DNA of 64,000 nucleotides from Candidatus Omnitrophota bacterium (lineage in GTDB: Bacteria > Omnitrophota > Gorgyraeia > Zapsychrales > JBAZNR01): positions 257,766 through 321,765 of the forward strand of contig JBAZNR010000002.1 in NCBI GenBank assembly GCA_041649175.1. The letters are read 5' to 3'. The notes under the pieces are model-generated. The model searched no databases. It saw only the letters and a list, made by a program, of their open reading frames with translations, and had not been told where the DNA came from. Positions 1 through 58,738 of this stretch are shown one piece after another. Every line of letters begins with the position of its first letter. The first letter of the stretch is position 1. Made by a program: the position numbers and the translations under genes.

Positions 1-123
1 TACAACTGGTTGAGCCAAAGGAAAATTTCCGGAATAAAGATCGGCGGGGTTTGGCGTTTTGACAAGCGCGAAGTTGACAAGTGGTTAAAAGCCCAATCAC
101 GAAAGGTCCGGCATGGCGAATAA
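1..123 (+). CDS. 3' end of upstream gene; C-terminus resembles an excisionase-family HTH DNA-binding domain (HTH_17)
   Basis: Frame 1 reads ...IKIGGVWRFDKREVDKWLKAQ... to TAA at 121-123. The G-x-WRF-x-R-x-x-(V/I)D-x-W motif is typical of HTH_17. Partial, so function is uncertain. Confidence 0.3.
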   Translation, partial: YNWLSQRKISGIKIGGVWRFDKREVDKWLKAQSRKVRHGE

Positions 124-1675
124 GAAACAAGTCTGCATATTCTTCGGCCCCAATTCCTTATGTTTTGTGGAAACGCAAAAGAAGGCTATTACGAATTTCT
201 TTGATGTTCCCCATAACCTGCTGGATAATACCCAAAACACCGCTTTACCCAACGACATCAAGCTTACCGCCATTATTCAAAAGTCCTTAAGAGACCGTAA
301 AATTGACACCTCTGAGGTTTACATTTCGCTCGCAAACCAAGACATCATCTTAAGATCATTCTTTATCCCCTGGATGGCCGCTTCCGAAGTTAAAGGCGTT
401 ATTGATTTTGAGGCGCGCCGCTACATTCCATTCAAGCTTGAAGACATCGCTTACACTTACCATTCCGCGCCGATCATTGAAAAAAAGAGCAAGCGCCTGC
501 GCATTTTATTTGTCGGCATTAAAAAAGACGTTTTAGACCGATACTGCTCCGTCCTGGAGCAGGCCGGGCTTAAAACGCTTCTGATCGAACCGGCATCGCT
601 AAGCCTTTTGCGGTTATTATCGCTAAAAAAGCAAGTTAACCCTAATCAGAAAACAGCTATTGTCCAGATGAACAAAGCAGAGGGAACCATCATCATCGTT
701 GATCATGGCATTCCTCAGTTTGTCCGGGATTTCCGGCTGTCCTCCGGGTCGCACGAGCTTACACAGCTCGACCCAACGCTTTTAGGCGAGCGGATCACCA
801 GCGAGATCCGCATTTCCATTGAATACGACCGCCGTCAAAATGCCGGGAACGTTGAAAAAATATTGCTCGTTTCATCCTTTGAGTCAAAAGACTTCGTTCA
901 GCGTTTATCCGAGGAACTTTCGATTGCCAATATTTCAACGATCAACGCGCGGCAATTGCTTGGCGTTGAAGAAGAGGTCAGCTCCGGCGTTCTCAACGCG
1001 CTGGGCGGCAGCTTAAAAGACGCTATTCCTTTTAACTTGAACATCAATCTGATCAAGTCACGCGCGAAGCCCGTTGAGCCGGAAAAAATATTTGAAGCGC
1101 CAAAACTTAATTATAATCTTACGATCAAAATTGCCGCCGCATGCGCTTGTTTAGTCATGGCGCTTTTCGGTTTTCAGCACCTAAAGATAGCTGACTACCA
1201 AAAAAAACTATCCGATCAAATGACCAGGCAGGGAGTTTACGAATCACTTTCCATTGTGGATATTGAAACGAAGCAAAAAGACCTGGATAAAAAAATCAAA
1301 GGTTACGCGAACATACGTTTAAAGAGCAATGTTTCTTTTTTCTTACAGCGCATCCCTCATCTTCTTCCGGAGGGCGCTTGGCTGTCGCGGCTTACCATTG
1401 ATTTTACCAACGCGTCTGATCCGCGGACATTTTCTGGGCGAGCGCAAAAACCCGGCGATGAACCACTAATGAATTCCCGGACATCCCTGGACATGGACGG
1501 TTTTGTTTTTGCCCAAGATCCCAATCAGCAGATCAATCTCGTTAATAAACTGATCGCAAGTTTAAAAAATGATAAGCAATTTTCACAGCCCTTTGAGGCT
1601 ATTTCATTAGTGAACGCACAAAAACAGGACTTGAAAGAGCACACGGTAACTTCTTTTAAGATCATTTGCCGGTAA
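113..1675 (+). CDS. pilM: type IV pilus assembly protein PilM fused to a PilN-like C-terminal segment
   Basis: 520 aa. N-terminal ~340 aa are actin-like PilM (VYISLANQDIILRSFFIPWM..., IDFEARRYIPFKLEDIAYTY). A TM helix (IKIAAACACLVMALFGF) is followed by a ~150-aa periplasmic tail as in PilN. Confidence 0.7.
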   Translation: MANKKQVCIFFGPNSLCFVETQKKAITNFFDVPHNLLDNTQNTALPNDIKLTAIIQKSLRDRKIDTSEVYISLANQDIILRSFFIPWMAASEVKGVIDFEARRYIPFKLEDIAYTYHSAPIIEKKSKRLRILFVGIKKDVLDRYCSVLEQAGLKTLLIEPASLSLLRLLSLKKQVNPNQKTAIVQMNKAEGTIIIVDHGIPQFVRDFRLSSGSHELTQLDPTLLGERITSEIRISIEYDRRQNAGNVEKILLVSSFESKDFVQRLSEELSIANISTINARQLLGVEEEVSSGVLNALGGSLKDAIPFNLNINLIKSRAKPVEPEKIFEAPKLNYNLTIKIAAACACLVMALFGFQHLKIADYQKKLSDQMTRQGVYESLSIVDIETKQKDLDKKIKGYANIRLKSNVSFFLQRIPHLLPEGAWLSRLTIDFTNASDPRTFSGRAQKPGDEPLMNSRTSLDMDGFVFAQDPNQQINLVNKLIASLKNDKQFSQPFEAISLVNAQKQDLKEHTVTSFKIICR

Positions 1676-2283
1676 AACATATGGACATACAAAACATAGG
1701 CCGAGAACTTTCGCAAATTGACATTGCCAAGATTGACGTTGGAAAACTCAGTCAATCGCTAAAGCAACGCAAAGATATCCTTTTAAACATCGCGATCGTT
1801 GTGGCCACATTCCTTCTGGCGGGAAATATTTTTGAAAATCTTAAAGTGCAGGAAGCTAAGCTTCGCTCCGACATCAGCGGCTTTGCGACAAAAAATGACG
1901 CGATCAAGAATTACGAGAAATCACGAAAGAACCTAGACGATCTTTTAGCGTCGTTTCCTTCGGGATTTTCTGACGCGGGGCAGATGATGGACAAAATTAA
2001 TGAGTTTGCGATCCTTCATAGCATTCAGATCTCCTCATTTACGCCCAAAGACGGACAGCAAACAGATTTCTACGACACGGTCGGGATCCAGTTAAGCGCT
2101 TCAGCCGCATCCTATGAAAACATCGCGTTTTTTATTCGCGACATTGAGAATTCGCCCTACGGGCTGCGCATTGAACATTGGGCGACGGAACTTGATTCTC
2201 GCTACACAACGAACACCGGCGACAGCGAACCGGGATCAGTTAAGATCAGCATAACCATTGAATCCGTTAAATTAAGAAAATGA
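1666..2283 (+). CDS. pilO: PilO-like bitopic pilus assembly protein
   Basis: 205 aa with one N-terminal TM helix (LLNIAIVVATFLLAGNIF) and a coiled-coil stretch. Position between pilM/N and pilP/Q. Overlaps pilM stop (translational coupling). Confidence 0.55.
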   Translation: MPVKHMDIQNIGRELSQIDIAKIDVGKLSQSLKQRKDILLNIAIVVATFLLAGNIFENLKVQEAKLRSDISGFATKNDAIKNYEKSRKNLDDLLASFPSGFSDAGQMMDKINEFAILHSIQISSFTPKDGQQTDFYDTVGIQLSASAASYENIAFFIRDIENSPYGLRIEHWATELDSRYTTNTGDSEPGSVKISITIESVKLRK

Positions 2284-2714
2284 AAAAAATCTTACTTCCG
2301 ATTTGTTTAGTTTTTCTTCTGGCTTCATCCGCCTCAGGCGAGGATGAGCAAATTCTGCCTATCGCCGATGACGCGCAGGCATTTTTAAATCCTTTTGTTC
2401 CCGCTTTGCCAAAACCAGCTGTTGTAGAGCCTGTCGCTGTTGACAGCCCCATCGCCATCGTCGAACCGCAAGAGCAATTCATAGCTCAACCCATGATGGA
2501 ACTTCCTAATCTACTGATCAACGGGCTCATCTGGAATACTAATCGGCCTCAGGCGATCGTTAACAATAAGATCGTCGGGCTAGGTGATACGGTGGACGGT
2601 GTTGAGATCGTTGCCATTGACCGCTCAGGCATCGAGATAGTTTTTCAGCAGCGCCATTATGAAGTCGGCCCGGATTCTAGCCCAAAAGAAATAATTAAAG
2701 AACAGCTGTTCTAA
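2280..2714 (+). CDS. PilP-like secreted pilus assembly protein
   Basis: 144 aa with a signal peptide (MKKILLPICLVFLLASSASG). C-terminal beta-rich segment (AIVNNKIVGLGDTVDGVEIVAIDRSGIEIVF) resembles the PilP domain. Sits immediately upstream of the secretin. Confidence 0.45.
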   Translation: MKKILLPICLVFLLASSASGEDEQILPIADDAQAFLNPFVPALPKPAVVEPVAVDSPIAIVEPQEQFIAQPMMELPNLLINGLIWNTNRPQAIVNNKIVGLGDTVDGVEIVAIDRSGIEIVFQQRHYEVGPDSSPKEIIKEQLF

Positions 2715-2759
2715 AATTTTTGGAGTGATAAAATAGCAGTATATAAAAGAGAGGGGCTC

Positions 2760-4280
2760 ATGATCACAAGAAAAAACGTATCTATTTTTTCATTCCTTGG
2801 TTTCCTGGGATTATTTCTTTTCTTTTCTTCCGGCGCATCCGCGCAGTCTTTATCTTTAGAAGACAGGTTTTTCTTAAACCCTCAAACCTCAAAAACAATT
2901 TCCATGGATTTTAAAGACGCGGCACTTAACGATGTCTTAAAAATATTTTCCCAACAATCGGGCTTGAATTTTATCGCCGAACAAGAAGTCATCGAAAAAA
3001 AGATCACCTTATTTTTAGACAAAGTTCCCGTTGAGCAAGCCTTAGAAAAGATCCTCAGCGCCAACAATCTGACCTACGAGATCCAGGCTGACAGCAATAT
3101 TTTCATCGTTAAATCATTAGGGGCCCCGGTTAAAGAGCTAGTCACGCGGGTTTACTACCTAAAAAATGCGACGGTGCAATCATCGAAATTCAACGCAACC
3201 ATAAACATCGAAGACGAAGAAGATAGCGAAGGCACCAGCAATCAAAACACAATGTTCGGCTCGACAGGCCAGGCCGAAAATGGCGTTGCGTCAGCCCTTA
3301 AAACGATCTTAAGCGAATCCGGAAAGATCGTTGAAGACCCTCGCACCAATAGCATTATTGTAACGGATATTCCCAGCCAATTTCCTTTGATTGAGCAAAC
3401 GATCGCGCGCTTAGATGTTCCGGTGTCGCAAATCCTCATTGAAACAGAAATGCTCGATGTTTCCAAGGATAACGCGGATAAACTCGGTATTAAATTTGGC
3501 GATACACCTTTGACATTCACCGGCGGAGAACGTGACCACGTTTATCCGTGGAACCAAAATAACCTTTTGCGAAAAGGCTTTGCCTTTGAAGAAGCGGAAT
3601 ATCGGGTGGGGACAATAAGCGCGGCCGGGCTATCGGCAACGTTGCAATTTTTGCGTACGCAGACCGACACGAAAAATCTTGCCCGTCCAAGAATTTTAAC
3701 GCTCAATAATCAAACGGCGCAAATTAAAATTTCGACAAATGAAGCCATCGGAGTTCAGACAGTCACAGACTCCGCGCAATCCAACGCAACGACAACCGTA
3801 GAAGCCGAACGTGTGCAAACCGGCGTTTTTTTAACCGTAACGCCGCAGGCCAATTTAACAACCCGCGAAATCACGATGGCGATCGCGCCGCGCGTTATTC
3901 AGGCGCGCTCCGGCGCGACATTCGAGGGAAAAACTTTTAAAGATCCGGAAGAGCGGGGAACAAAATCGATCTTGCGCGTTCAAGACGGCGACACAATTAT
4001 CTTAGGCGGGCTTTTGCGAACAGACTTAACAAATACGACCACAAAAGTTCCGGTCTTGGGAGATATTCCTATTGTCGGCGCGGCTTTTCGCCATAAAGAC
4101 AAAAGCGACATCGAACGAGAACTGATCATTTTTATTACGCCGCACATCGTCAGCGACGCAACAACCGCAAAACTCGCATTAACCACAAATCCTCAGGACA
4201 TCGTGCGCGAACAAGATGTTCCCGAATCGCGTCGCCAGCAAATAACCGATACGCTAAAGCGGATAGAAAATCAAAGGTAA
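2760..4280 (+). CDS. pilQ: type IV pilus / T2SS secretin (PilQ/GspD family)
   Basis: 506 aa with a signal peptide. Secretin hallmarks: IIVTDIPSQFPLIEQTIARLDVPVSQILIETEMLDVS and ...ILGGLLRTDLTNTTTKVPVLGDIPIVGAAFRHKDKSDIERELIIFITPHIV. Confidence 0.8.
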   Translation: MITRKNVSIFSFLGFLGLFLFFSSGASAQSLSLEDRFFLNPQTSKTISMDFKDAALNDVLKIFSQQSGLNFIAEQEVIEKKITLFLDKVPVEQALEKILSANNLTYEIQADSNIFIVKSLGAPVKELVTRVYYLKNATVQSSKFNATINIEDEEDSEGTSNQNTMFGSTGQAENGVASALKTILSESGKIVEDPRTNSIIVTDIPSQFPLIEQTIARLDVPVSQILIETEMLDVSKDNADKLGIKFGDTPLTFTGGERDHVYPWNQNNLLRKGFAFEEAEYRVGTISAAGLSATLQFLRTQTDTKNLARPRILTLNNQTAQIKISTNEAIGVQTVTDSAQSNATTTVEAERVQTGVFLTVTPQANLTTREITMAIAPRVIQARSGATFEGKTFKDPEERGTKSILRVQDGDTIILGGLLRTDLTNTTTKVPVLGDIPIVGAAFRHKDKSDIERELIIFITPHIVSDATTAKLALTTNPQDIVREQDVPESRRQQITDTLKRIENQR

Positions 4281-4286
4281 ATCCAC

Positions 4287-6026
4287 ATGACCTATCGCAA
4301 GCTCGGCGAAATACTCGTCCAGCAAGGCTTAATTAGCGCTAATCAACTTGGCCAAGCGATCGCTGTTCAGAAAAAAGACGGCGGCCGCATTGGTGAAATT
4401 TTAGTTAAGCTTGGCATCATCAAAGAAGAAGAGATGGTTGCCGCCTTAGGTAAACAACTTCTTTTGCCCTACGCGTCGCGCAGTTCAGGGTTACTTCATC
4501 CGCAAAAAGAGCAGGGCTTGCAAGACCTCATTCCGAAGGAATTCGCTCAAAAAAATCTGGTCTTACCTTTATCACGCAACTTAAATTCCTTAACCTGCGC
4601 CGTCTTCGATCCTTTGGATCTGCTCATGATCGATAATTTACGCAAAATGACATCTTGCGAGATCAACCTTGTCATCGCCGGAAGAACCGACATCATCAAA
4701 GCCATTGATGATTTTTATAGCAGCTTGCCTGCGTCAACTTCACAAACATCGATGTTGGGGGAAGCGGTTCAAGATACCTATACGCCTAGCGCCCGGCAAA
4801 CCAGCGAAGCGAATCAGATCCTTCCGTCGGATGATGAAGAAACAGAATTAAGCCTTGATAAATTGATCGCCCGCGCCGAAGAAGCCCCTGTCGTTAAGCT
4901 TGTTGACCTTATTATCCGTCAAGCTATTGATGAGCGCGCCAGTGATATTCATATTGAACCGTATAAAGACAAGATCAATTTGCGCTATCGCATTGACGGC
5001 ATCCTTTATGAAATTCCGCCGCCGGCGAGGCATTTACATCTTCCCATTATTTCCCGTATTAAAATTTTAGCGAAACTTGATATCGCCGAAAAAAGGCTTC
5101 CGCAAGACGGAGCGATCGTCGTTAAGCTTGAAGATCGTGTGGTTGACTTAAGAATTTCTACCATCCCCACCATCTGGGGCGAAAAAATCGTCATGCGAAT
5201 TTTAGATAAAAACGCTGTTCCGCTCGATCTCTCTTATTTAGGGTTTGAACAAAAACAACTGGACCTGATCCGTAAAGCCATTCATTCACCTTATGGCTTA
5301 GTTTTTGTCACCGGGCCGACGGGAAGCGGGAAGTCAACATCGCTTTACGCCGCGCTTCGCGAATGTGCGGACCCTAAGAAAAATATCATTACCGTTGAAG
5401 ACCCCGTGGAATTTCGCCTCGACGGGATCAATCAAGTCAATGTCAAGCCGGATATCGGATTAACATTTGCTTCAGCCCTTAGAGCATTTCTACGCCAAGA
5501 CCCGGATGTTATGATGGTGGGAGAAGTCCGCGATCTTGAAACCGCACAAATTTGCGTCCGAGCCGCTTTAACCGGACATTTTGTTTTAAGCACGCTTCAT
5601 ACCAACGATTCCGCATCCGCCGTCACAAGGCTTTTAGATATTGGTATTGAGCCATATTTGCTTATGCCTTCGCTTATTTTAGTCATCGCCCAAAGATTAG
5701 GCCGAAAACTTTGCCCCAAATGTAAAGAAGCTTATGAACCGACGCCGGAACAACTCGGCGGCATAAAGATCAAGGCCGATCTAATTTACCGCGCCAAGGG
5801 TTGCGAAGAATGCAATCAAACAGGATACAAAGGACGCATCGCTCTTGGCGAGATCATGCCGATCGACGAAGAAATTCGAAAGCTCATTGCCGGCCACGCG
5901 TCCTATATGCAGATCAAAGATGTCGCCCGGAAAAACGGAATGGACACATTGTTTGAATCTGGAATAAAAAAAGTTGAAGCAGGATTAACCAGCTTGGAAG
6001 AAATTCTTAGTGTCGCCCTAAGCTAA
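4287..6026 (+). CDS. pilB: type IV pilus assembly ATPase PilB/GspE
   Basis: 579 aa. N-terminal GspE_N-type domains. Walker A VTGPTGSGKSTSLYAAL. C-terminal tetra-Cys motif CPKC...CEEC. Confidence 0.85.
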   Translation: MTYRKLGEILVQQGLISANQLGQAIAVQKKDGGRIGEILVKLGIIKEEEMVAALGKQLLLPYASRSSGLLHPQKEQGLQDLIPKEFAQKNLVLPLSRNLNSLTCAVFDPLDLLMIDNLRKMTSCEINLVIAGRTDIIKAIDDFYSSLPASTSQTSMLGEAVQDTYTPSARQTSEANQILPSDDEETELSLDKLIARAEEAPVVKLVDLIIRQAIDERASDIHIEPYKDKINLRYRIDGILYEIPPPARHLHLPIISRIKILAKLDIAEKRLPQDGAIVVKLEDRVVDLRISTIPTIWGEKIVMRILDKNAVPLDLSYLGFEQKQLDLIRKAIHSPYGLVFVTGPTGSGKSTSLYAALRECADPKKNIITVEDPVEFRLDGINQVNVKPDIGLTFASALRAFLRQDPDVMMVGEVRDLETAQICVRAALTGHFVLSTLHTNDSASAVTRLLDIGIEPYLLMPSLILVIAQRLGRKLCPKCKEAYEPTPEQLGGIKIKADLIYRAKGCEECNQTGYKGRIALGEIMPIDEEIRKLIAGHASYMQIKDVARKNGMDTLFESGIKKVEAGLTSLEEILSVALS

Positions 6027-6037
6027 AGGAGAGTTTC

Positions 6038-7273
6038 GTGCCGCGTTTTTCTTATACCGCTAAAGATATTAACGGAAAGACCGTAAGCGCAACAGATGAC
6101 GCGCCGGATCAAGGCGCACTAGTCTCGCGACTTCAAGCGCAAGGTTATTTTATTGTCAGTGTTGCGCCCTTTAAACCAACCGCAGGAAAAAGATCTGACG
6201 GCAGGCCGGTCGTCAAGGGAACATTCACCCATAATAAAGTCAATTTAGATGATCTCTTGATGTTCTGTCATCAGCTTTCTACTATGCTTAATTCCGGGGT
6301 TACGCTCACACGAAGCCTTGATGTCATTTCTATGCAGGTGGAAAGCAAACAACTCTCCGAAACATTAATTGAAGTTAAAAAAGATGTTGAGCACGGTGGA
6401 TCTTTAAGCGCTAGCCTTGCCAAGCATCCAAAAGTTTTTAACCAATTTTGGGTCAGCCTTATCGAAGTCGGCGAGGCCTCCGGAACCATGCCAACCGTCT
6501 TAGAAAAGCTCGCGACCTATATGGAACAAGAGTCTGCTTTCCAGGCTTCCATTATTTCAGCCATCATTTATCCTGCCATTCTTATGCTCGTTGCTACAGG
6601 TGCCATTGTCTTTTTTGCCTTGGTCATCGGGCCAAAATTTAAGACGATCTTTGACCAATTTCACGTTCAATTGCCCCCTTTGACCAGCGCGCTTTTAGTT
6701 GTTTTTGACTTTATAAAAGAGAAATTCCTCGTGTTGATAGGCGCCATTTGTGCTATATTTATACTAATAAAGAAGTACATCGCAACGCCGAAAGGGCAAT
6801 TACAATTTGAAGGATTTTTATTCAAGATCCCCAAATTCGGCTACGTTATGAAAACAATTGTGGTGGAACGATTTACCTCACAATTGTCCATTTTAGTAGA
6901 TAGCGGTGTCCCGATCCTGTACGCTTTAGACATCGCTCAGCGCATGGTGGGAAACAGAACTTGCGCTAATGTTATTGGTGAAATAAAAAATAATGTCAGG
7001 GAAGGAAAGCTTGTCGCGGAACCGATGATGAAAAGCGGATTCTTTCCTCCCATGGCCGTTCAAATGATCTTGATCGGCGAAGAGACCGGAGAACTCGGCA
7101 AAATGCTTAGAAGCGTTGCCGAGTTTTATCAAAATTACGTCCAAACGTTTATGAAGCGTTTTGGAACGATCTTTGAGCCCGTGATGCTGGTTTTTATGGG
7201 CGCTGTCATCGGAACTATTGTTATCGCGATGTTTATGCCAATATTTAACCTCGCCCAGATAGGCGGCGGATAA
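6038..7273 (+). CDS. pilC: type IV pilus platform protein PilC/GspF
   Basis: 411 aa polytopic membrane protein with the duplicated GspF domains (…LSTMLNSGVTLTRSLDV… and …FTSQLSILVDSGVPILYALDI…). Confidence 0.85.
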   Translation: MPRFSYTAKDINGKTVSATDDAPDQGALVSRLQAQGYFIVSVAPFKPTAGKRSDGRPVVKGTFTHNKVNLDDLLMFCHQLSTMLNSGVTLTRSLDVISMQVESKQLSETLIEVKKDVEHGGSLSASLAKHPKVFNQFWVSLIEVGEASGTMPTVLEKLATYMEQESAFQASIISAIIYPAILMLVATGAIVFFALVIGPKFKTIFDQFHVQLPPLTSALLVVFDFIKEKFLVLIGAICAIFILIKKYIATPKGQLQFEGFLFKIPKFGYVMKTIVVERFTSQLSILVDSGVPILYALDIAQRMVGNRTCANVIGEIKNNVREGKLVAEPMMKSGFFPPMAVQMILIGEETGELGKMLRSVAEFYQNYVQTFMKRFGTIFEPVMLVFMGAVIGTIVIAMFMPIFNLAQIGGG

Positions 7274-49715: not shown

Positions 49716-52700
49716 ATGCTTAAAAAAATCATTCTCTTAAGCCTTCTCCTTCTAACACTCGTTAGCTCTCCTCTCTTTGCCGATACCATTATTTCTTCCA
49801 ATATTGCCGGAAATACAACTTGGACGCTAGCCAATAGCCCTTATATTGTTACAGGAGATATTCAAGTCGCCTACGAAGGCCCCTGGTATTGGGGTGCCCG
49901 AGCCGTCCTCACAATACAACCAGGTGTTCTGGTCAAATTTGAACCAGGTGCCGGTCTGGTCATCGGAAACGGAGCGGCAGGTGGCCTTCAAGCGGTGGGT
50001 ACAACCGAGCAACCTATCACGTTTACTTCCAATGCCGCTACTCCCGCACCAGGAGATTGGAAAGGGATTTATTTTCACAACAATACCGTCCAAACCAATC
50101 TTGATCATACAATAGTCGAATATGGCGGCCATACCAACAACGCCAATCTCTACTTTGAAGGAACGTCTCCTCCTGTTATCAATTCGACTATCCGCTTTAG
50201 TAGCGGTGACGGTATTTATGCCAACGACACCTCTGTTCCTGCTTTAAGCAATCTCGCCATTAACGATAATACGTTTTATCCCGTCAATATTCATGCCACG
50301 ACTGTTGACAGTCTTGGCCTGTTAAGCGCTTCCGGAAATGGGCAGGGAGATATAGTGAAGTTACGAAGCACTGGCACAATAGGCGCAAGTACCGCTTGGC
50401 CATACACATCAATTCCTTATCTTGTCGCCTCCGACATTGAAGTCGCTTACATAGGTCCGTGGTATAACGGCGCCAGGGCTGTCCTGACAATACAACCCGG
50501 CGTCACCGTAAAGTTTGACCCCGGTGCCGGCTTGTTTATGGGGATCAACAATGCGGGAGGGCTTCAGGCTGTGGGTACAACCGAGCAGCCTATCACGTTT
50601 ACTTCCAATGCCGCTACTCCAACTCCCGGAGACTGGAAGGGGCTTTATTTTGGGACCGGCACCGTGCAGACCAATCTTGACCATACGATAGTTGAATACG
50701 GCGGCAATACCAATAACGCCAATGTGTATTTTAACGGCACCTCTCCTTTGATGACAAACTCGACGATCCGCTCGGGCAGTGGTGACGGTATTTATGCCAA
50801 CGACACCTCTGTTCCTGCTTTAAGCAATCTTACCATTAACGACAATGCGTTTTATCCCGTCAATATTCATGCCACGACTGTTGATAGTCTTGGCCTGTTA
50901 AGCGCTTCCGGGAATGGACAGGGAGATATAGTGAAGTTACGAAGCGCTGGCACAATAGGCGCCAGCACCCCTTGGCCTTACACATCAATTCCATATCTTG
51001 TCACCTCCGACATTGAAGTCGCTTACATAGGTCCGTGGTATAACGGCGCCAGAGCTGTCCTGACAATACAACCAGGTGTTACCGTAAAGTTTGATCCCGG
51101 TGCCGGTTTATTCATAGGAGGCGGCCACGATGGCGGACTTCAAGCGGTGGGCACAGCCGAGCAACCTATCACATTTACGTCCAATGCCGTAACCCCCGCG
51201 CCAGGAGACTGGAAGGGAATTTATTTTCAAAGCAACACTGTCCAGACCAATCTCGATCATACGATAATTGAATACGGCGGCAATACAAATAACGCCAACA
51301 TCTATCTTAATGGTACTTTTTTTGCTATTACTAATTCGGTCATCCGTCTTGGCAGCGGTGACGGTATTTACGCCAGCGACGGTTCCGTTCCTGCTTTAAG
51401 CAATCTTACCATTGATGATAACGCGCTTTACCCTGTCAATATTCACGCCTCGAACGTTGACAGCCTTGGTCTGTTAAGCGCTTCCGGAAATGGGCAGGGA
51501 GATATGATAACGTTACGTAGTGCGGGCGCAATAGGCTCCAGTACCCTTTGGCCATACACATCAATTCCTTATCTTGTCACCTCCGACATTGAAGTCGCGT
51601 ACACAGGTCAGTGGTATTGGGGTGCCAGAGCCGTTCTCACAGTCCAACCGGGTATTACCGTTAAATTTGATCCGGGTGCCGGCCTGTTCATAGGAGTCAA
51701 CCATGATGGCGGGCTTCAGGCTATGGGCACAACCGAGCAGCCTATTACGTTTACTTCCAATGCCGCTACTCCCGCGCCGGGAGATTGGAAGGGGATTTAT
51801 TTTGGAACCGGCACCGTTGAGGCTAATCTTGTCCATGCGATAATTGAATACGGCGGCAATACCAACAACGCTAATCTCTACTTTAATGGCACATCTTTTC
51901 CTGTTGTCAACTCGACCATCCAATACAGCAGTGGTTATGGCATTTATCTCAATAACGCATCCTTGAACCTGAGCGCACTGACAATTCGCAATGGTTTAAA
52001 TGACGGAATTCATTTGAGCGGCGCCTCGGCTTTATCTCTTACCAATAGTGCTATTGAGAATAATTCAGGTGACGGCATTGAGCTAAATGAAACTTCAAGC
52101 CTGGCGCTGATGCATAGCGCAGTACAAAATAATTCCGGTTACGCCCTGAATTCCGCAAGCTCCCAATCCCTTAGCGCAAATTATTTGAATATCGCTTCCA
52201 ATGGCGGTGGCATAAATGCAACTGCTGGCAATATCAACGCTTCTTATGTTTGGTGGGAAGATGTCTTCGGCCCATCCGGCGCGGGACCGGGGACAGGGCA
52301 ATCGGTAAGTACCAACGTTACTTACGAGCCCTGGTGTGCCGAACCGGTCAATGACACTTTTTATTTTTCCAATGTCGCGCCATCTTTGCCACAGTTTAAT
52401 CAAAACAGTGACATCACAGTTTTACATGCACAGTTGGCCCAAAACGCGAATTGGCAAGCCACGATTAGAAATAGCGATTTGCAGGCAGTGAAGAATTTTT
52501 CCGGCGCAGGCAGCATCATTGACCAGCCTTGGGGCGGAGACGATAGCAATGATCAGCCGCTTCCCAACGGTACTTATTTTTATATGATTTCTGCGCAAAG
52601 CACGCAAAATCCCGAAACGACCACCTCTGTTGCCGGACGCATAACGCTTGATGACAGCCTGCCGCTTCATATCCTCAATAATTCAGTCTCGCAGCGGTTT

Positions 52701-53558
52701 TTCAAGCCGCGTCTTCACACCACGACATCCATTCAATACACTCTTCGGTTTAATGCCAATACCACCATTCAAATTAATAATTCGTCCGGAAACATTGTGC
52801 GCACACTGATCAACAGTGAACTTCGTTCAGCCGGAGATTACGCAGAAAACTGGAACGGCACCGATGACAACGGACAACTTTTACCCGATGGGATTTACAC
52901 CTACACCATTGATGCGCAGGCGATTATCGGAGGAGAGGCTCAATACAGCCCGCCACCCACCAGCGAGCATGTGCCCCTGACCAGCGTCACCTTCGCGCCT
53001 GAGCCGTTTTCGCCCGAGCGAGGAGAACGCCTGGCTATTAGCTATAATGTTGCAGTACCAGCAAAAGTAAAGTTTGGCATTAATTTCTGGGCATTTGCGT
53101 CGGACAAGCCCAGTGAAGGAACCGGCAATATCGTTTATTGGAACGGCCGCAACGACCAAGGACAATTTTCGGATTCGGTGCAGATCGTATCCCAGAGCTT
53201 ACGACTTCCAGAAAATTTCATCGCGATTGTCGATGACCGCACTCTAGATATTTCCGCGCTCACCACCGATCCCTATTTGATCAAACCAGTTTACAATGAA
53301 GTTACAACCATTACCTATACGATCAATGAGCCGGCGAGTGTCACGACAAAGATCATAAGTCAAAATGGAAGTCAAATCATAAGGGTTGCGGAAGAAAACG
53401 TTCAAAGAGAAGCCGGAACTTATTCGGTCATCTGGGACGGCAGGAGCACGTCAGGAGAAACTGTTACAACGCCGGCAGATTATCGGGTTCGCGTAGAAGC
53501 GATAGACAATTACGGAAAAATTACTATTCGGGATGGCAATATTCGAATTGCTTACTAG
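49716..53558 (+). CDS. large secreted right-handed parallel beta-helix protein with four ~190-aa tandem repeats and C-terminal FlgD-Ig-like domains
   Basis: 1280 aa. Signal peptide. Four near-identical units (…TSIPYLV[AT]SDIEVAYIGPWYNGARAVLTIQPGVTVKFDPGAGLF…QPITFTSNAATPAPGDWKGIYF…NLDHTI[IV]EYGGNTNNAN…). Then PbH1-type repeats (NNSGDGIELN…, NNSGYALNS…) and several ~90-aa Ig-like modules (…NGTYFYMISAQ, …DGIYTYTIDAQ…). Only 18 nt separate its stop from the Rhs start. Confidence 0.8.
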   Translation: MLKKIILLSLLLLTLVSSPLFADTIISSNIAGNTTWTLANSPYIVTGDIQVAYEGPWYWGARAVLTIQPGVLVKFEPGAGLVIGNGAAGGLQAVGTTEQPITFTSNAATPAPGDWKGIYFHNNTVQTNLDHTIVEYGGHTNNANLYFEGTSPPVINSTIRFSSGDGIYANDTSVPALSNLAINDNTFYPVNIHATTVDSLGLLSASGNGQGDIVKLRSTGTIGASTAWPYTSIPYLVASDIEVAYIGPWYNGARAVLTIQPGVTVKFDPGAGLFMGINNAGGLQAVGTTEQPITFTSNAATPTPGDWKGLYFGTGTVQTNLDHTIVEYGGNTNNANVYFNGTSPLMTNSTIRSGSGDGIYANDTSVPALSNLTINDNAFYPVNIHATTVDSLGLLSASGNGQGDIVKLRSAGTIGASTPWPYTSIPYLVTSDIEVAYIGPWYNGARAVLTIQPGVTVKFDPGAGLFIGGGHDGGLQAVGTAEQPITFTSNAVTPAPGDWKGIYFQSNTVQTNLDHTIIEYGGNTNNANIYLNGTFFAITNSVIRLGSGDGIYASDGSVPALSNLTIDDNALYPVNIHASNVDSLGLLSASGNGQGDMITLRSAGAIGSSTLWPYTSIPYLVTSDIEVAYTGQWYWGARAVLTVQPGITVKFDPGAGLFIGVNHDGGLQAMGTTEQPITFTSNAATPAPGDWKGIYFGTGTVEANLVHAIIEYGGNTNNANLYFNGTSFPVVNSTIQYSSGYGIYLNNASLNLSALTIRNGLNDGIHLSGASALSLTNSAIENNSGDGIELNETSSLALMHSAVQNNSGYALNSASSQSLSANYLNIASNGGGINATAGNINASYVWWEDVFGPSGAGPGTGQSVSTNVTYEPWCAEPVNDTFYFSNVAPSLPQFNQNSDITVLHAQLAQNANWQATIRNSDLQAVKNFSGAGSIIDQPWGGDDSNDQPLPNGTYFYMISAQSTQNPETTTSVAGRITLDDSLPLHILNNSVSQRFFKPRLHTTTSIQYTLRFNANTTIQINNSSGNIVRTLINSELRSAGDYAENWNGTDDNGQLLPDGIYTYTIDAQAIIGGEAQYSPPPTSEHVPLTSVTFAPEPFSPERGERLAISYNVAVPAKVKFGINFWAFASDKPSEGTGNIVYWNGRNDQGQFSDSVQIVSQSLRLPENFIAIVDDRTLDISALTTDPYLIKPVYNEVTTITYTINEPASVTTKIISQNGSQIIRVAEENVQREAGTYSVIWDGRSTSGETVTTPADYRVRVEAIDNYGKITIRDGNIRIAY
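49790..52000 (+). repeat. four in-frame tandem direct DNA repeats of about 575-580 bp inside the beta-helix gene
   Basis: Repeat landmarks (…tacttccaatgccgctactcc…, …ccttatcttgtc[gac]cctccgacattgaagtcgc…) recur with period ~580 nt at about 49840, 50415, 50995 and 51575. Copies are nearly identical at the DNA level. Confidence 0.8.
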
Positions 53559-53576: not shown

Positions 53577-56500
53577 ATGAGCAATCTTTTTAAAAATATC
53601 ATTCTCAAATTTTCGCTAATAGTCGCACTGCTTTTCTGTGCCGTTCCGGCCGAGGCTACGAACGGGTTTTGCCACGACATGTGCTTTGGCGGCCCTGTTC
53701 AGCCCTGTGAGGTTGAAAATTGCTGGTGGTGCTGCGAAGTCATCACGACTGAATTTGACAACATCTATGACCCGGTCGACAGATATGGCAACTTGCAAAG
53801 CATGGAAAGCTTAACAGGAGAAACCTGCCCAAATACAAAGCCAGAAACGCCTATAAACCCTATTCATGGCAAAACCGACCCCGTCAACTTATCCAACGGC
53901 CAATTCTATTACAATTGCCACGATACGCAGATCCCGGGACGCGAAATCGACCTTGAAGCAACGCACATCTACAATAGCGGCTCGGCTTACAATGGCCCCT
54001 ACGGCTACGGCTGGACATTCAACTATCATATGCGCCTGCACGAACTCGCTAGCGGCGACGTCGCCATCACCACCGGCAACGGACGTAAACTTTCCTACAC
54101 CTATAATGGCTCGGTCTACGCGCCACCGACGGGGCGTTTTGAAGAATTACTTTCCAATCCCGATGGAAGCTGGACGCTTGTGCAAGCGCACGGCCAAAAA
54201 TATCAATTTGACGCGGATGGAAAACTTGTCCAGATCCAAAACCGCAATGATAATACCATCACATTATCTTATGAAGAAATCCGCCAGCCTATTTTTGGCT
54301 ACAGCCCTTTTGCCTTGGCTGTTGAGATCCAAGTCATGGTCGGCATTGATTGGCGCCTAACGCAAATCACCGATACAACCGGACGCGTTATCACGCTTAA
54401 CTATAACGCGAGCGGACTTTTGGAAACGATCATAGATGGCGCCAGGCAATACACCTTTACCTACGACTCCAACACCAATGATCTTTTAAGCATCACCAAG
54501 CCGGCCACAAACGAATTTCCCGAAGGAGTTACCCAGTCTTTTACCTACGATGCTGAGCACAATCTCGTTTCGATGACCGATGCCCGCGGGCAAGCCTTTG
54601 TTCAAAATATTTATAATACGGATGGGCGCGTGGAAGAACAGATCTTAGGAGGAAATACCATTTCCTTAAGCTACAACGGCAATCAAACCGTCCAAACCGA
54701 CCCCAACGGTAATGAAACCGTTTATACGTTCGACACCAACGGCCTCCTTTTAAGCCGGGAAGAACGCACCCGAGATTTACGCCCCGATGATCCGGATTCG
54801 TTCATAACCGCCTATGCGTATGACGCGTATCAAAACCAGATCGCGCAAACCTTACCCGGCGGTAACGGAGTTAAACTCACCTATGATACGGCCAATCCCA
54901 ATATCCGCTCCAAGGGAAATCTTTTGGAAGTTCGCCGCAAAGAGGATATGAGCCAACCCGATAATAATATCAACGATATCGTCGCCAACTTTAGCTATGA
55001 GCCCAATTTTAATTTTGTTCAAACGGCAACCGATCCTAATGGAAATACAATAAATTACACCTACGATTATCAGCTTTCCCCCGAAGACCCGCGTTACGGG
55101 GAAAACGGAAATTTAGCCGAAGTGGCGTATCCGGAAATTAGTGGCGAAACGCCGCGAGCGGCGTTTCGCCACAACCAATACGGCCAGGTCATTGAGGCGA
55201 CTGACCCTAACGGCAATACAACGCACTATGAATATTTCCCGCAAACCGGATATTTACAGCGCGTCATTGAAGACCCCAATGGCATTAACGCCGTCACCCA
55301 ATTCGCTTATGATGATTTTGGAAATCTATCTTCCGTCACCGATGGCAATAATCACACAACGGGCTTTCTCTATAATGAATTAGGCTGGCTGACGCGAGAA
55401 ACCGATGCGCTCGGGTTTCAAACTAAATATTTTTATGATGAAAACGGAAATTTGATCAGGACAGAAAGACAGACAGATGTGCAGGGAAATCAGTGGCAAA
55501 TCACGCGATCTACCTATGATATTTTAAACCGATTAACATCCATTACTGATCCTTTAAACCGTGTCACAAGTTTTGAATATGATCTAAATGGAAATCGGGC
55601 TTCCGTCACCGACGCGCTGGGACGGATTACCCATTACGATTATGATGAAAGAAACCTGCTTTGGAAGGCGACGGATGCTCAAAACGCGGTAACCGAGTAT
55701 TTTTATAACGCGAACGCAAAGCTATCGCGCATTGATGATGCCAATGACAATTCAACTATTTATGACCATGACGGGTTTGATAGATTAACGCATATGACGT
55801 ATGCGGATAACTCTTTTCATGAATATAGTTATGATAAGAATTCGAATATGACGGAAGATTTGACACCGAGCAATGCGGCGATCAGTTACGAATATGATGT
55901 TCTTAATAGACTGACCGCTAAACGCTATCCCCTAAACCCTAGTGACGATGTGGAATATGATTACGATTTGGGCTCGCGTCTTATTAGCGTACAGCGTATA
56001 GCAAATGGCGTAGCGTATGGATATGACGCGCTAAATAGAATTGTTTCTTCCGAACAAACGCTAAACGCTATACGCTATGCGCTCGGTTATGCGTACGATT
56101 TAGCGGGCAACCGTATAGGCGTTGATTATCCATCCGGACAGAGGATAGGATATGGATATGATGCGTTAAATAGAATCAGCCAAATATTTGATAATGGAAC
56201 TTTGCTGGGAAGTTATGGCTACGATGTGTTGGGCCGCCGTACGAAAAAATCTCTACTCGGAGGCGGCCCTACCGGCATCGGCCCGCAAAAAACCACTTCC
56301 TATTCCTACGATCTTGCCGATCAATTGGTTAAACTGGATAACTCGATACCAACGACAAGCACTGTTCCCGACGCCGGAATTATTTCACAATTAAGTTATG
56401 GATATGACTTGGCGGGGAACCGCACTGCGAAAAAAACACTCTCCGTAAGAACAGATCCGAATGGGACAGGTAATACACCGCATTTTACTTCAACGACGTT

Positions 56501-57791
56501 AAAAGAAATCTACAGCTACGATCCAACCTATCAAATCATTGGCTTTGATATTTCTACGGAAGCTTCCGTCACCCATCACAGCTTTGCTTATGATCTTCTT
56601 GGAAATCGTACTCAAGCGGATGATATTACATATCAATCGAACAGCTTAAATCAATATACGAGTGTTGATGGGGAAGTTTATGCGTATGACGGTAACGGGA
56701 ACTTAACTGATGACGGGAATAATACCTATTCCTATGACAGTGAAAACAGACTTTTGTCTTCAGTCTTTAGTCTTGGGTCTTTGGTCTACGAATATGATGG
56801 TTTAGGCCGCCGGATAAGTAAAAACATCGGCGGCCGTCTCACTTACTTCATTTACGACGGTGACCGTATTATTGAAGAAAGAAGCGATAGCGGTTCTTTA
56901 CTTGCTTCTTATGTTTATGGAAGCGGCCTCGATGAAGTTCTAACAATGAATCGCAATAATCAGAATTATTTCTATTTTCAAGATGGGCTTGGTAGCACCT
57001 CTGAGATCACAAACAGTAATGGACAAGTTCTCGAAAGCTATGCTTATGACGTGTACGGAGCACCTACGATTCGAGATACTGACAACAGAATAGCTCCTTC
57101 CAGTGTTATTGGTAATCCTTTCATGTTTACGGGTCAAGAGTATGACAGCGAAACCGGAAACTATCATTACAATGCCAGGGCTTACCATCCTCTTACCGGA
57201 CGATTCCATCAAAGAGATCCGCTGGGCAATATTGATAGCGAAAACTTGTATACATACGTCCTCAATAATCCAATAAATTTAATTGATCCTTATGGAGAAT
57301 TAACGTTTCCTGGTATCGGATGGGTTGACGTGGGAGAAAAAGCAGGGCGATCAGCATTAAATTATTGGGCGTCTCGGGCTGCTCTTGCTCGTAATCCATT
57401 TGAAGGTGGATTGTATAATACATTGGGCTTCTTTTCGGCACTTTGGACACCATGTACGAGTGATGCTACTTTTACAGTTCTTGGTTTGGCGACTGGAGTG
57501 AATGCTTATGGAAAATCACCAGCTTATTGGCAATATTATCCAAAAGGAAATCCCAAATATGCCTCACCGTGGTTAACAAAAGGTACAAAATTTAGCCCAC
57601 CTTATAAGACAGGAGCAGGGGCTCAAAAAGCATTGAATTTGCCACCGCACAACCCTGGAACCGCTGTAAGACCTATGAGAATTGGGCCAGGGGAGCAAAT
57701 TGCAGGTCCACGAACACCGAGACCACAACCATGGAGAAACCTACCCGGAGAAGGACAAGAATATTACAGAGGTTATAATTTTCCTAATTAA
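53577..57791 (+). CDS. Rhs/YD-repeat polymorphic toxin with Sec signal peptide (WapA-like), Cys-rich N-terminal module and unrecognised C-terminal toxin domain
   Basis: 1404 aa. Signal peptide MSNLFKNIILKFSLIVALLFCAVPAEA. 8 Cys within about 30 aa (CHDMCFGGPVQPCEVENCWWCC). Dozens of YD repeats (YDxxGNL/YDALNRL). Rhs core end motif …YTYVLNNPINLIDPYGE. Then a ~165-aa C-terminal tail with no motif I recognise. Confidence 0.85.
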   Translation: MSNLFKNIILKFSLIVALLFCAVPAEATNGFCHDMCFGGPVQPCEVENCWWCCEVITTEFDNIYDPVDRYGNLQSMESLTGETCPNTKPETPINPIHGKTDPVNLSNGQFYYNCHDTQIPGREIDLEATHIYNSGSAYNGPYGYGWTFNYHMRLHELASGDVAITTGNGRKLSYTYNGSVYAPPTGRFEELLSNPDGSWTLVQAHGQKYQFDADGKLVQIQNRNDNTITLSYEEIRQPIFGYSPFALAVEIQVMVGIDWRLTQITDTTGRVITLNYNASGLLETIIDGARQYTFTYDSNTNDLLSITKPATNEFPEGVTQSFTYDAEHNLVSMTDARGQAFVQNIYNTDGRVEEQILGGNTISLSYNGNQTVQTDPNGNETVYTFDTNGLLLSREERTRDLRPDDPDSFITAYAYDAYQNQIAQTLPGGNGVKLTYDTANPNIRSKGNLLEVRRKEDMSQPDNNINDIVANFSYEPNFNFVQTATDPNGNTINYTYDYQLSPEDPRYGENGNLAEVAYPEISGETPRAAFRHNQYGQVIEATDPNGNTTHYEYFPQTGYLQRVIEDPNGINAVTQFAYDDFGNLSSVTDGNNHTTGFLYNELGWLTRETDALGFQTKYFYDENGNLIRTERQTDVQGNQWQITRSTYDILNRLTSITDPLNRVTSFEYDLNGNRASVTDALGRITHYDYDERNLLWKATDAQNAVTEYFYNANAKLSRIDDANDNSTIYDHDGFDRLTHMTYADNSFHEYSYDKNSNMTEDLTPSNAAISYEYDVLNRLTAKRYPLNPSDDVEYDYDLGSRLISVQRIANGVAYGYDALNRIVSSEQTLNAIRYALGYAYDLAGNRIGVDYPSGQRIGYGYDALNRISQIFDNGTLLGSYGYDVLGRRTKKSLLGGGPTGIGPQKTTSYSYDLADQLVKLDNSIPTTSTVPDAGIISQLSYGYDLAGNRTAKKTLSVRTDPNGTGNTPHFTSTTLKEIYSYDPTYQIIGFDISTEASVTHHSFAYDLLGNRTQADDITYQSNSLNQYTSVDGEVYAYDGNGNLTDDGNNTYSYDSENRLLSSVFSLGSLVYEYDGLGRRISKNIGGRLTYFIYDGDRIIEERSDSGSLLASYVYGSGLDEVLTMNRNNQNYFYFQDGLGSTSEITNSNGQVLESYAYDVYGAPTIRDTDNRIAPSSVIGNPFMFTGQEYDSETGNYHYNARAYHPLTGRFHQRDPLGNIDSENLYTYVLNNPINLIDPYGELTFPGIGWVDVGEKAGRSALNYWASRAALARNPFEGGLYNTLGFFSALWTPCTSDATFTVLGLATGVNAYGKSPAYWQYYPKGNPKYASPWLTKGTKFSPPYKTGAGAQKALNLPPHNPGTAVRPMRIGPGEQIAGPRTPRPQPWRNLPGEGQEYYRGYNFPN

Positions 57792-57803
57792 AGGAGGGAA
57801 CGA

Positions 57804-58031
57804 GTGCTTATAGTAAGAAAATTAAATAATTTTAACAAAGTTGCTAATAAAGTAACTCTGGCTGAACTTAAAAAATACATACTTCCTGATGGCGATTATG
57901 CTGTTGAGCTGTTTGAGGACGAGAAAGTAATACATTTAAATATTCCTCATGGCAATATTTATTCAGAGTGCAACGAGAAAGAATGGAAAGAAGTCTTAGG
58001 GGGTTTAAGAAAATTAGGGTTAGAATTTTAG
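57804..58031 (+). CDS. small protein immediately downstream of the Rhs toxin; candidate cognate immunity protein
   Basis: 75 aa. GTG start 6 nt after an AGGAGGG RBS and 12 nt after the Rhs stop. AT-rich like the toxin C-terminal region. No recognisable domain. Confidence 0.45.
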   Translation: MLIVRKLNNFNKVANKVTLAELKKYILPDGDYAVELFEDEKVIHLNIPHGNIYSECNEKEWKEVLGGLRKLGLEF

Positions 58032-58069: not shown

Positions 58070-58111
58070 CATTTGTGTTGTTGGTAAACCAGTTTCCCAA
58101 CAACACAAATG
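58070..58111 (+). terminator. perfect 15-bp inverted repeat (catttgtgttgttgg / ccaacaacacaaatg) with 12-nt loop, downstream of the immunity gene
   Basis: Seen directly. Followed by a T-rich but interrupted tract (ttgcttgttcagttctg). Two further short hairpins follow, at about 58172-58194 and 58201-58220. Confidence 0.4.
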
Positions 58112-58231: not shown

Positions 58232-58738
58232 ATGAAGTTAGCAGAAATAGATCTTTCACCTGAATCAGGCCGCCCTTTTGCCACAAACGCTAGGTTTTGT
58301 TTCGCTTCAAAAGCAAGCAAAACAAAACCCGCGTGGCTTAGGGTCTTCGACCGCACGAAAAAAAGCCTACTAGGAGGCGGCCCTTCCGGCATCGGTCCCC
58401 AAAAAACCACTTCCTATTCTTATGATCTTGCCGATCAATTAGTTAAACTGGATAACTCGATACCAACGACAAGCACTGTTCCCGACGCCGGAATTATTTC
58501 ACAATTAAGTTATGGATATGACTTGGCTGGAAACCGTGTTGTGAAGAAAACACTCTCCGTAAGAACAGATCCGAATGGGACTGGCAATACACCGCATTTT
58601 ACTTCAACGACGTTAAAAGAAATCTACAGCTACGACCCGACGTATCAAATAACAGATTTTGATATTTCTACGGAAACGTCCGTCACCCATCACAGCTTTG
58701 CTTATGATTTGCTAGGGAATAGAACTCAAGCCTCGTAA
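58232..58738 (+). pseudogene. orphan Rhs fragment: ORF whose last ~130 codons duplicate an internal segment of the upstream Rhs core
   Basis: nt ~58351-58732 align with nt ~56237-56617 at roughly 90% identity (KKSLLGGGP[ST]GIGPQKTTSYSYDLADQLVKLDNSIPTTSTVPDAGIISQLSYGYDLAGNR…TLSVRTDPNGTGNTPHFTSTTLKEIYSYDPTYQI…SVTHHSFAYDLLGNRTQA). The first ~40 codons of the ORF are unrelated. No signal peptide, no core end motif, no toxin domain. Confidence 0.6.

Follow-up and report, generated by a model that had tools for sequence, protein, structure and literature searches.

A probable Sec-dependent Rhs toxin with a predicted TNT/Tne-like NADase-fold tip and a candidate immunity gene in an Omnitrophota genome

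Rhs proteins that carry NADases, the glycohydrolases of nicotinamide adenine dinucleotide (phosphate) (NAD(P)+), have already been described (PMC10539506, PMC13285283), and systems of this kind are well known. Among the closest characterized enzymes are Tne2 of Pseudomonas protegens (PDB 6B12) and Tse6/Tne1 of P. aeruginosa (4ZV0/4ZV4), both NAD(P)+ glycohydrolase effectors of a type VI secretion system (T6SS), as well as the Rhs1 tails of Serratia marcescens, Rhs1CT-Db10 (6XTD, "Tne3") and Rhs1CT-1036 ("Tne4") (PMC10539506). The active site of TNT contains R757, Y765 and Q822, and that of AfNADase contains R129 and F137 (PMC10539506); a catalytic Gln is found throughout the characterized TNT-type NADases (Tne2 Q387, Tse6 Q413, TNT Q822) (PMC6398120). 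The locus considered here lies in a 64-kb stretch of contig JBAZNR010000002.1 from a Candidatus Omnitrophota metagenome-assembled genome (MAG), hereafter the window, and comprises a gene for an Rhs protein of 1404 amino acids (aa), referred to as rhs, followed by a small open reading frame (ORF) for a 75-aa protein. The two genes read as a genuine, intact Rhs polymorphic toxin-immunity pair. As a whole, the explanation that we favor, with some reserve, is that of a Sec-exported Rhs toxin ending in a TNT/Tne-like NADase-fold domain and accompanied by its immunity gene.

The tail that follows the Rhs core spans 163 residues (aa 1242-1404; about 165 in the initial annotation of this DNA) and has a pI of 9.9, with 21 Gly, 20 Pro and 17 Ala but only two Asp and one His. 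Searches of Pfam and NCBIfam with the tail returned zero matches at E<=1, so that the initial description of the C-terminal domain as unrecognizable holds for sequence models, but not for the structural model of its last 95 residues, which is NADase-like. A TNT-like NADase was suspected because of motifs conserved across the family (WLT[RK]G, PPY, ALNLP..NPGTAVR, GPR and GxGx[EQ]Y). Modeling of aa 1310-1404 with AlphaFold2 from a 66-sequence alignment gave a structure of six strands and one helix, with a predicted local distance difference test score (pLDDT) of 94.2 and a predicted template modeling score (pTM) of 0.84. When this model was compared with PDB structures, its sole strong neighbors were toxins of the TNT/Tne group, NAD(P)+ glycohydrolases with an ADP-ribosyltransferase (ART)-like fold. 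Tne2 ranks first (6b12; 78 of 95 residues aligned at 2.4 A, comparison value 7.1), followed by Tse6 (4zv4, 5.6), Serratia Rhs1-CT (6xtd, 5.4), AfNADase (6yge, 3.6), a Fusarium NADase (8r15, 3.2) and TNT (4qlp, 2.8), below which ADP-ribosyltransferases appear in the list. The palm-type twisted beta-sheet common to Tne2, Tse6, Rhs1-CT, AfNADase and TNT is present in the model.

Sequence comparisons point in the same direction for part of the family. When 70 members were scanned one by one against Pfam, the only recurring family was TNT (PF14021), found in four of them, and the matching members have Gln at the key position discussed below. These matches are weak: the best (E=3.9e-5) aligns LSLP...GGGIQY with profile positions 24-71 of 88 and scores 24.4 bits, short of the gathering score of 27, and the window tail gives no TNT match at E<=1. 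One Gln-type member has a single match among PDB sequences, to a fungal TNT-type NADase (GQPGGGIQYQ vs GQPGQGVQYQ; E=0.74, not significant alone). NCBIfam searches with the 70 members yielded noise only, profile A1 matched nothing meaningful among PDB sequences, and no homology to Tne2-CT was detected at E<=10. Because both Foldseek and the profile searches of PDB sequences came back empty, the toxin domain is related to the TNT/Tne enzymes at the level of fold and motif rather than of family. From the PDB neighbors of the model and the weak TNT matches of the Gln-type members, it appears to be an uncatalogued family inside the TNT/Tne-like NADase fold superfamily rather than a toxin of a new kind. 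The initial proposal of a new toxin-immunity family would thus stand for both partners, with the proviso that the toxin falls within a known superfamily.

The residues expected at the active site can be read from column counts over the 70 family members. Position 1335 is Lys in the window protein, Arg in 55 members and Lys in six; position 1343 is Tyr, as in 56 members, with His in seven and Phe in four; and position 1395 is Glu, as in 60 members, the other ten having Gln. K1335, Y1343 and E1395 form the predicted key triad. The spacing of eight residues between the basic and aromatic positions equals those of R757-Y765 in TNT and R129-F137 in AfNADase (PMC10539506 numbering), and the distance from the aromatic position to Glu/Gln is 52 residues here vs 57 in TNT and AfNADase. 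Nearly invariant besides are Y1320, A1349, L1353, N1359, G1377, P1378 and G1393. Lys at position 1335 recurs in relatives that read WLTKG or WLAKG (L019, P0003, P0027), and Glu and Gln alternate at position 1395 within one toxin family. Judging from the motif alignments, E1395 would be the equivalent of the catalytic Gln.

Several observations weigh against the explanation favored here. The window protein has Glu at the hallmark Gln position of TNT-type NADases and Lys at the usual Arg position, and Glu is a hallmark of transferases. No sequence-level link connects it with any NADase in Pfam or NCBIfam at E<=1, profiles A2 and A3 found nothing at E<=10 among all PDB sequences (a set that should contain 6B12, which is present in the structure libraries), and Foldseek found no match for the model in the PDB. 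One of the closer tail homologs (P0001, 65% identity) is followed by a 144-aa ORF. Finally, as has been pointed out for Tne5, the fold alone cannot tell a hydrolase from a transferase in the ART-like superfamily (PMC13285283). The same fold could serve an ADP-ribosyltransferase, which would take ADP-ribose from NAD+ and attach it to a target in the victim (protein, RNA or DNA) rather than simply hydrolyze NAD+, as the prevalence of Glu would suggest. Glu is the catalytic residue of both the R-S-E and the H-Y-E transferases; proven NADases of the TNT type rely on Gln instead (PMC10539506, PMC6398120). We consider a transferase unlikely, however, since the domain is very small (95 aa with one helix) and shows no obvious target-recognition elements, and since the columns reveal neither an R-S-E nor an H-Y-E triad, nor any conserved Ser/Thr motif or His. 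The free interchange of Glu and Gln within the family also suggests that this side chain positions or polarizes the substrate rather than defining a transferase. Overall, an NAD-using toxin of the ART fold is likely, and a plain NAD(P)+ glycohydrolase, the activity that fold and motifs suggest, is reasonably probable.

The family to which the tail belongs is widespread. A word-indexed search retrieved seven metagenomic relatives, five of which open with the end of an Rhs core (DPSGL, DPMGL, DPEGS, DPYGE), the rest being fragments that start further in; a HMMER profile search yielded 434 cluster representatives with E<=1e-3, of which 125 reach E<=1e-10. Most matches lie at the C-termini of Rhs or teneurin-like proteins of 1300-5100 aa, and all long carriers that were inspected have a DPxG motif directly before the match. 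The tail is borne by unrelated carriers, of Rhs as well as teneurin-like type, and by orphan arrays starting at the DPxG motif, and related metagenomic proteins occur in Omnitrophota, Nitrospira, Nitrospinota, Acidobacteriota, Methylococcales, Desulfuromonadales and other taxa. Searches of GTDB genomes with the window toxin domain and of JGI metagenomes with alignment A6 gave zero confirmed relatives; a consensus-like family member used as query found 15 MAG loci. A third homolog search, with profile A3, returned unannotated "hypothetical" fragments only and zero bridge to annotated TNT proteins.

When the listed representatives were sorted by the part of the profile that each one matches, 68 covered the whole tail, 28 shared only the last ~95 residues, placed after a different linker, and 47 shared only the first ~70 residues, placed before quite different C-terminal ends. 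Because the two parts occur separately, aa 1242-1309 appear to form a re-usable adaptor (module 1) and aa 1310-1404 the toxin proper (module 2), so that the tail, treated as a single unit in the initial annotation, reads as two independently shuffled modules. Additional toxin tips, likewise uncatalogued, seem to be present in the many other short, unannotated ends that follow the adaptor (P0085-P0156), among them "RFDRPHHGKGW.FDG", "PHYHRRPGIG.HRPW", ends that terminate in "CGCQ" and that of a protein containing HINT. A 150-aa fragment (P0005), in which a YD-repeat segment joins the toxin domain directly without core motif or adaptor, either arose by recombination or is a chimera of the assembly. 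The 1065-aa predicted protein P0084 consists of 17 tandem repeats of 62 aa and matched the profile at positions 82-133 (E about 1e-17); as its repeats lack the family motifs, the match of such biased, repetitive sequence looks spurious.

The composition of the tail, rich in Gly, Pro and Ala and poor in Asp and His, together with a first module that is mildly hydrophobic and predicted, with low confidence, to be helical, could conceivably indicate a non-enzymatic toxin with a membrane-inserting or pore-forming module 1 and a module 2 that binds a receptor or is structural. Such a toxin is scarcely credible here: no 19-residue window exceeds a Kyte-Doolittle value of 0.87, so that no transmembrane helix is predicted, module 2 is modeled at pLDDT 94 as an NADase-like palm with conserved pocket-type residues, and the 75-aa protein has neither a signal peptide nor a membrane segment, which better fits an enzyme with a cytoplasmic target. 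The notion of a pore-former, raised by the Gly/Ala-rich first half, was dropped on the grounds of hydropathy and of the enzyme fold of module 2.

The case for the 75-aa gene as immunity partner comes from its relatives. As first described, it has a strong ribosome-binding site and starts 12 nt downstream of rhs: the AGGAGG directly follows the rhs stop codon (TAA, 57789-57791). A homolog directly follows the toxin of this clade in seven independent cassettes (the window, P0002, two in L001, L002, L018 and L019/L020), and the 75-aa gene is for this reason very likely the immunity gene, of a new small family. In the P0002 contig the homolog has 74 aa and starts 9 nt after the toxin stop codon; across the cassettes other than that of the window the start lies 9-25 nt after this codon or overlaps the toxin gene. 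The initial annotation had proposed to look for the small ORF in homologous cassettes, where it proves to be kept and to diverge along with the toxin: toxin-domain identities range from 38 to 82% across the seven, and toxin and immunity identities co-vary with a Spearman coefficient of 0.70 over 21 non-independent pairs. Relatives from other samples share 72-84% identity with the 75-aa protein, and the family motif is L..(I/L)(L/K)(K/R)(Y/F)...Y...I.HG.(I/F)...C...EW..(L/M)(L/M). No significant match to this family was found in Pfam or among PDB sequences, in which the solved immunity proteins (presumably including Tni2 and Tsi6) would be represented. On the model of His131, Lys62 and Arg153 in immunity proteins known from NADases, an invariant His49 was considered as a plug of the active site; the Phe at this position in cassette L001b weakens the idea.

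A sister toxin clade (L003-L013), encountered in MAGs from Azospira, Nitrospira, Nitrospinota, Acidobacteriota, Methylococcales and other taxa, has a different, unrelated family of conserved 112-151-aa ORFs just after the toxin stop codon, with the motifs "GW.P.GK" and "PRH.GY" (for example, L003 6228-6650 and L007 1702-2154). These ORFs presumably constitute a second immunity family that goes with this fold; several immunity families per toxin fold are the usual pattern among polymorphic toxins. The JGI metagenome contig L001 (1-9236) carries two toxin-immunity cassettes, a further RHS tail and a phage-type integrase, and looks like an orphan cassette array; its second immunity homolog (4760-5419) is fused to a long, hydrophobic C-terminal region with multiple transmembrane segments.

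Upstream of the tail, the carrier displays the features of an Rhs/YD polymorphic toxin: YD repeats, a core with a pair of DPxG motifs, a recombining C-terminal domain and, by synteny, an adjacent downstream gene. Its initial assignment to this class is borne out by matches to RHS_repeat (E=8.6e-75, 13 stretches) and DUF6531 in Pfam and to TIGR03696 and YD_repeat_2x/TIGR01643 (E=7e-56) in NCBIfam, and the rhs ORF with its features is not explicable as a chance ORF. The N-terminus is predicted, as before, to be a Sec signal peptide; this call, like the others made here, rests on inspection and Kyte-Doolittle hydropathy, which reveal two lysines (K6, K11), a 12-residue hydrophobic core (aa 12-23, values up to 2.9) and AEA/T at 25-28. 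The "8-Cys knot" initially placed right after it dissolves on closer reading into six Cys in aa 32-53, with C84 and C114 (the latter within DUF6531) further off and C21 inside the signal peptide.

The Rhs core ends in ...YTYVLNNPINLIDPYGE (D1237-E1241), and a second DPxG motif (RDPLG, D1214) lies 23 residues upstream. The resulting pattern, RDPLGN-X18-DPYGE, resembles the canonical autoproteolysis motif DPhGL-X17-DPhGL (PMC13285283), with the final Leu substituted in both halves. It can be regarded as a near-canonical Rhs aspartyl autoprotease motif at which cleavage is predicted, and the term canonical used at first thus applies to all but its last residue, E instead of L. Residues other than Leu are common after DPxG in relatives of this tail (DPEGS, DPTGT, DPYGE).

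This substitution, the K1335 found in place of the majority Arg and a vestigial Rhs fragment downstream of the 75-aa gene could be taken as signs of a decaying or inactive locus in which the small ORF is a leftover. That is very unlikely, given that the 4.2-kb ORF, the ribosome-binding site and the terminator are all intact, that the Lys and the non-Leu residues recur among relatives as described above, and that the immunity protein is conserved in other samples.

The mode of delivery is best approached through the carriers. No PAAR, VgrG or other T6SS domain was found by Pfam in the rhs protein or in the 45 ORFs scanned across the window, in agreement with the initial annotation; the N-terminal PAAR/prePAAR or VgrG/Eag partner of a T6SS-delivered Rhs effector is thus missing from both. 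The other full-length carriers inspected, none of which has PAAR or VgrG, either combine a signal peptide with DUF6531 and RHS repeats or are teneurin-like (TTR, NHL, FN-plug, YD shell), often with signal peptides; the signal-peptide architecture of the rhs protein is shared with P0026, P0024, P0034 and P0081. A predicted signal peptide without any domain for dedicated injection is the mark of the Sec-dependent, WapA-like or "T2SS" (type II secretion system) class, and the carrier architecture appears to fit the RHS class described as "T2SS/Sec-dependent" by Zhang et al. 2012 (PMC3482391). A BC cocoon of an ABC (Tc) toxin was considered and rejected, as Pfam finds only DUF6531 and RHS repeats, without SpvB or TcdB-mid, and the upstream gene is of beta-helix/FlgD-Ig type, not TcA.

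Because the window encodes SurA, a TonB-dependent receptor and a secretin, markers by which the host looks diderm, a step across the outer membrane would be required. A type IV pilus/T2SS-like set (PilM, PilO, secretin, T2SSE ATPase and T2SSF platform) at 113-7273 is the sole envelope-spanning machine seen in the window, and nothing ties it to rhs. It is conceivable, if decidedly unlikely, that the Glu-type 95-aa domain is a minimal ART-fold enzyme with a new substrate or product and that module 1 is a portable import domain by which Sec-secreted Rhs cocoons bring cytoplasmic toxins across the diderm envelope without a T6SS. In that event, Omnitrophota that are ultra-small and possibly predatory would wield the locus as a weapon against their hosts or prey. 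Ultra-small predatory forms are known in this phylum (bioRxiv 10.1101/2023.11.21.568195), and a role of the rhs toxin in predation is speculation.

Returning to the NADase-fold toxin, the following course of events can be proposed. The signal peptide, as predicted, would export the precursor, whose YD-repeat shell would fold around the tail, and the aspartyl protease of the core (D1214, D1237) would cut at DPYGE/L to free the 163-aa tail. Shell encapsulation and autoproteolytic tail release are established Rhs/TcC biology, from which these two steps are carried over; what is seen here is the motif. Judging from its modular distribution, module 1 probably packages the tail or aids entry into the target. 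Module 2, a putative minimal ART-like "palm" of TNT/Tne type, would most likely bind NAD(P)+ through K1335 (Arg in most relatives), Y1343, other aromatics and E1395, and by its fold and motifs would hydrolyze it to nicotinamide and ADP-ribose, whereupon the NAD pool of the target would collapse. In the producer and its kin, the cytoplasmic 75-aa protein may bind and block the toxin, as conserved adjacency and co-divergence suggest.

The coordinates of the locus are collected in Table 1. The hairpin downstream of the 75-aa gene is a likely terminator that closes a two-gene unit. Guanine-plus-cytosine content is 31.6% in the immunity gene, 44-46% in the toxin tip and 45% in the window, and the low value of the immunity gene suggests that the gene or cassette was acquired from elsewhere. 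The vestigial Rhs fragment, 381 nt long and in frame, starts 320 nt 3' of the 75-aa gene and forms, with the core segment that it copies, a direct repeat whose units are 2114 nt apart; recombination across this repeat could remove the toxin tip together with the immunity gene. The order toxin, immunity gene, Rhs fragment is found again in L019 (881-1126). Upstream, a gene at 49716-53558, ending 18 nt 5' of the rhs start codon, encodes a 1280-aa signal-peptide protein with four near-identical beta-helix units of ~190 aa and FlgD-Ig/CHU_C-like domains. It may be co-transcribed with rhs, and its product could act as an adhesin or as a partner to the toxin.

Table 1. Coordinates of the rhs locus, as positions in the window
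Feature	Position	Strand	Basis
rhs gene, 1404 aa	53577..57791	+	ORF listing, Pfam/NCBIfam; NCBI MFA5060280.1, labeled "RHS repeat-associated core domain-containing protein"
Predicted Sec signal peptide, aa 1-27, cleavage predicted A27/T28 after AEA	53577..53657	+	Sequence inspection and hydropathy
Cys-rich stretch, aa 32-53, 6 Cys	53670..53735	+	Sequence composition
DUF6531, aa 101-174	53877..54098	+	Pfam E=4.7e-16
YD/RHS-repeat shell, 13 Pfam RHS_repeat stretches, 18 YxYD motifs	54099..57044	+	Pfam, NCBIfam, motif count
Rhs-associated core TIGR03696, aa 1157-1240	57045..57296	+	NCBIfam E=2.6e-21
DPYGE motif, aa 1237-1241, predicted autoproteolytic release site	57285..57299	+	Homologous tails begin at the same motif
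Tail module 1, aa 1242-1309, predicted helical adaptor, motif SALWTPCTSD	57300..57503	+	Profile-coverage sorting, helix prediction
Tail module 2, aa 1310-1404, putative toxin domain of TNT/Tne-like NADase fold	57504..57791	+	AlphaFold2 model, motif columns
AGGAGG ribosome-binding site, 6 nt 5' of GTG	57792..57797	+	Sequence
Candidate immunity gene, 75 aa, GTG start	57804..58031	+	NCBI MFA5060281.1, "hypothetical protein"
15-bp perfect hairpin then U-rich stretch, likely terminator	58070..58111	+	Hairpin scan z=-4.2
Vestigial Rhs core fragment, copy of aa 888-1014	58351..58731	+	90.6% nt / 95% aa identity to 56237-56617

These findings do not alter what is known of polymorphic toxins. What is new is a family with Glu at the key position, a small immunity family, a portable adaptor and carriers that are consistently of the Sec type. 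A testable function, NAD+ destruction, can now be proposed for a tail classed as unknown by every sequence library and for several hundred related metagenomic proteins. As a further member of the Tne/TNT group, mostly with Glu where its characterized TNT-type members have Gln, the family also offers a natural experiment on what separates a hydrolase from an ADP-ribosyltransferase. A re-usable adaptor module is defined between the Rhs cleavage site and the toxin and, because the carriers were found without T6SS markers, the family provides a handle on the poorly understood Sec-dependent Rhs route in diderms.

Set beside Tne2 and Tse6, the domain shares the small palm, the aromatics that are essential in those enzymes and a polar residue that opens the last strand (PMC6398120), and it is likewise paired with a small cognate immunity protein, here a candidate. 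It differs from them in having Glu instead of Gln387/Gln413 and in lacking detectable sequence similarity; moreover, they are delivered by PAAR, VgrG and the T6SS, with transmembrane helices and Eag chaperones, where the present protein has a signal peptide and an Rhs shell. The Serratia Rhs1 tails also depart from it as T6SS (PAAR/EagR) effectors with larger, six-helix domains, a catalytic Gln and different immunity folds. With the TNT family PF14021 (M. tuberculosis CpnT-TNT, Aspergillus AfNADase, S. intermedius TelB) it has in common the basic residue, the aromatic at +8 and, after ~52-57 residues, the GGGx(Q/E)Y strand, in a domain about half the size. Tne5, the Rhs-CT of Pluralibacter gergoviae (PMC13285283), is an NADase and provides a parallel, compared by description only: it too is an Rhs tail of ART-like fold with a Lys/Glu rather than an Arg/Gln pocket, although its domain has 174 aa and five helices, its Lys and Glu lie 90 residues apart (60 here) and it is linked to a T6SS.

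The carrier finds its counterpart in B. subtilis WapA, which belongs to a monoderm host and has wall-binding repeats and nuclease-type tails, whereas the present host looks diderm. Like WapA and the class of Zhang et al. 2012 (PMC3482391), it has no T6SS parts and combines a signal peptide, a YD shell and a variable C-terminal toxin with an adjacent immunity gene.

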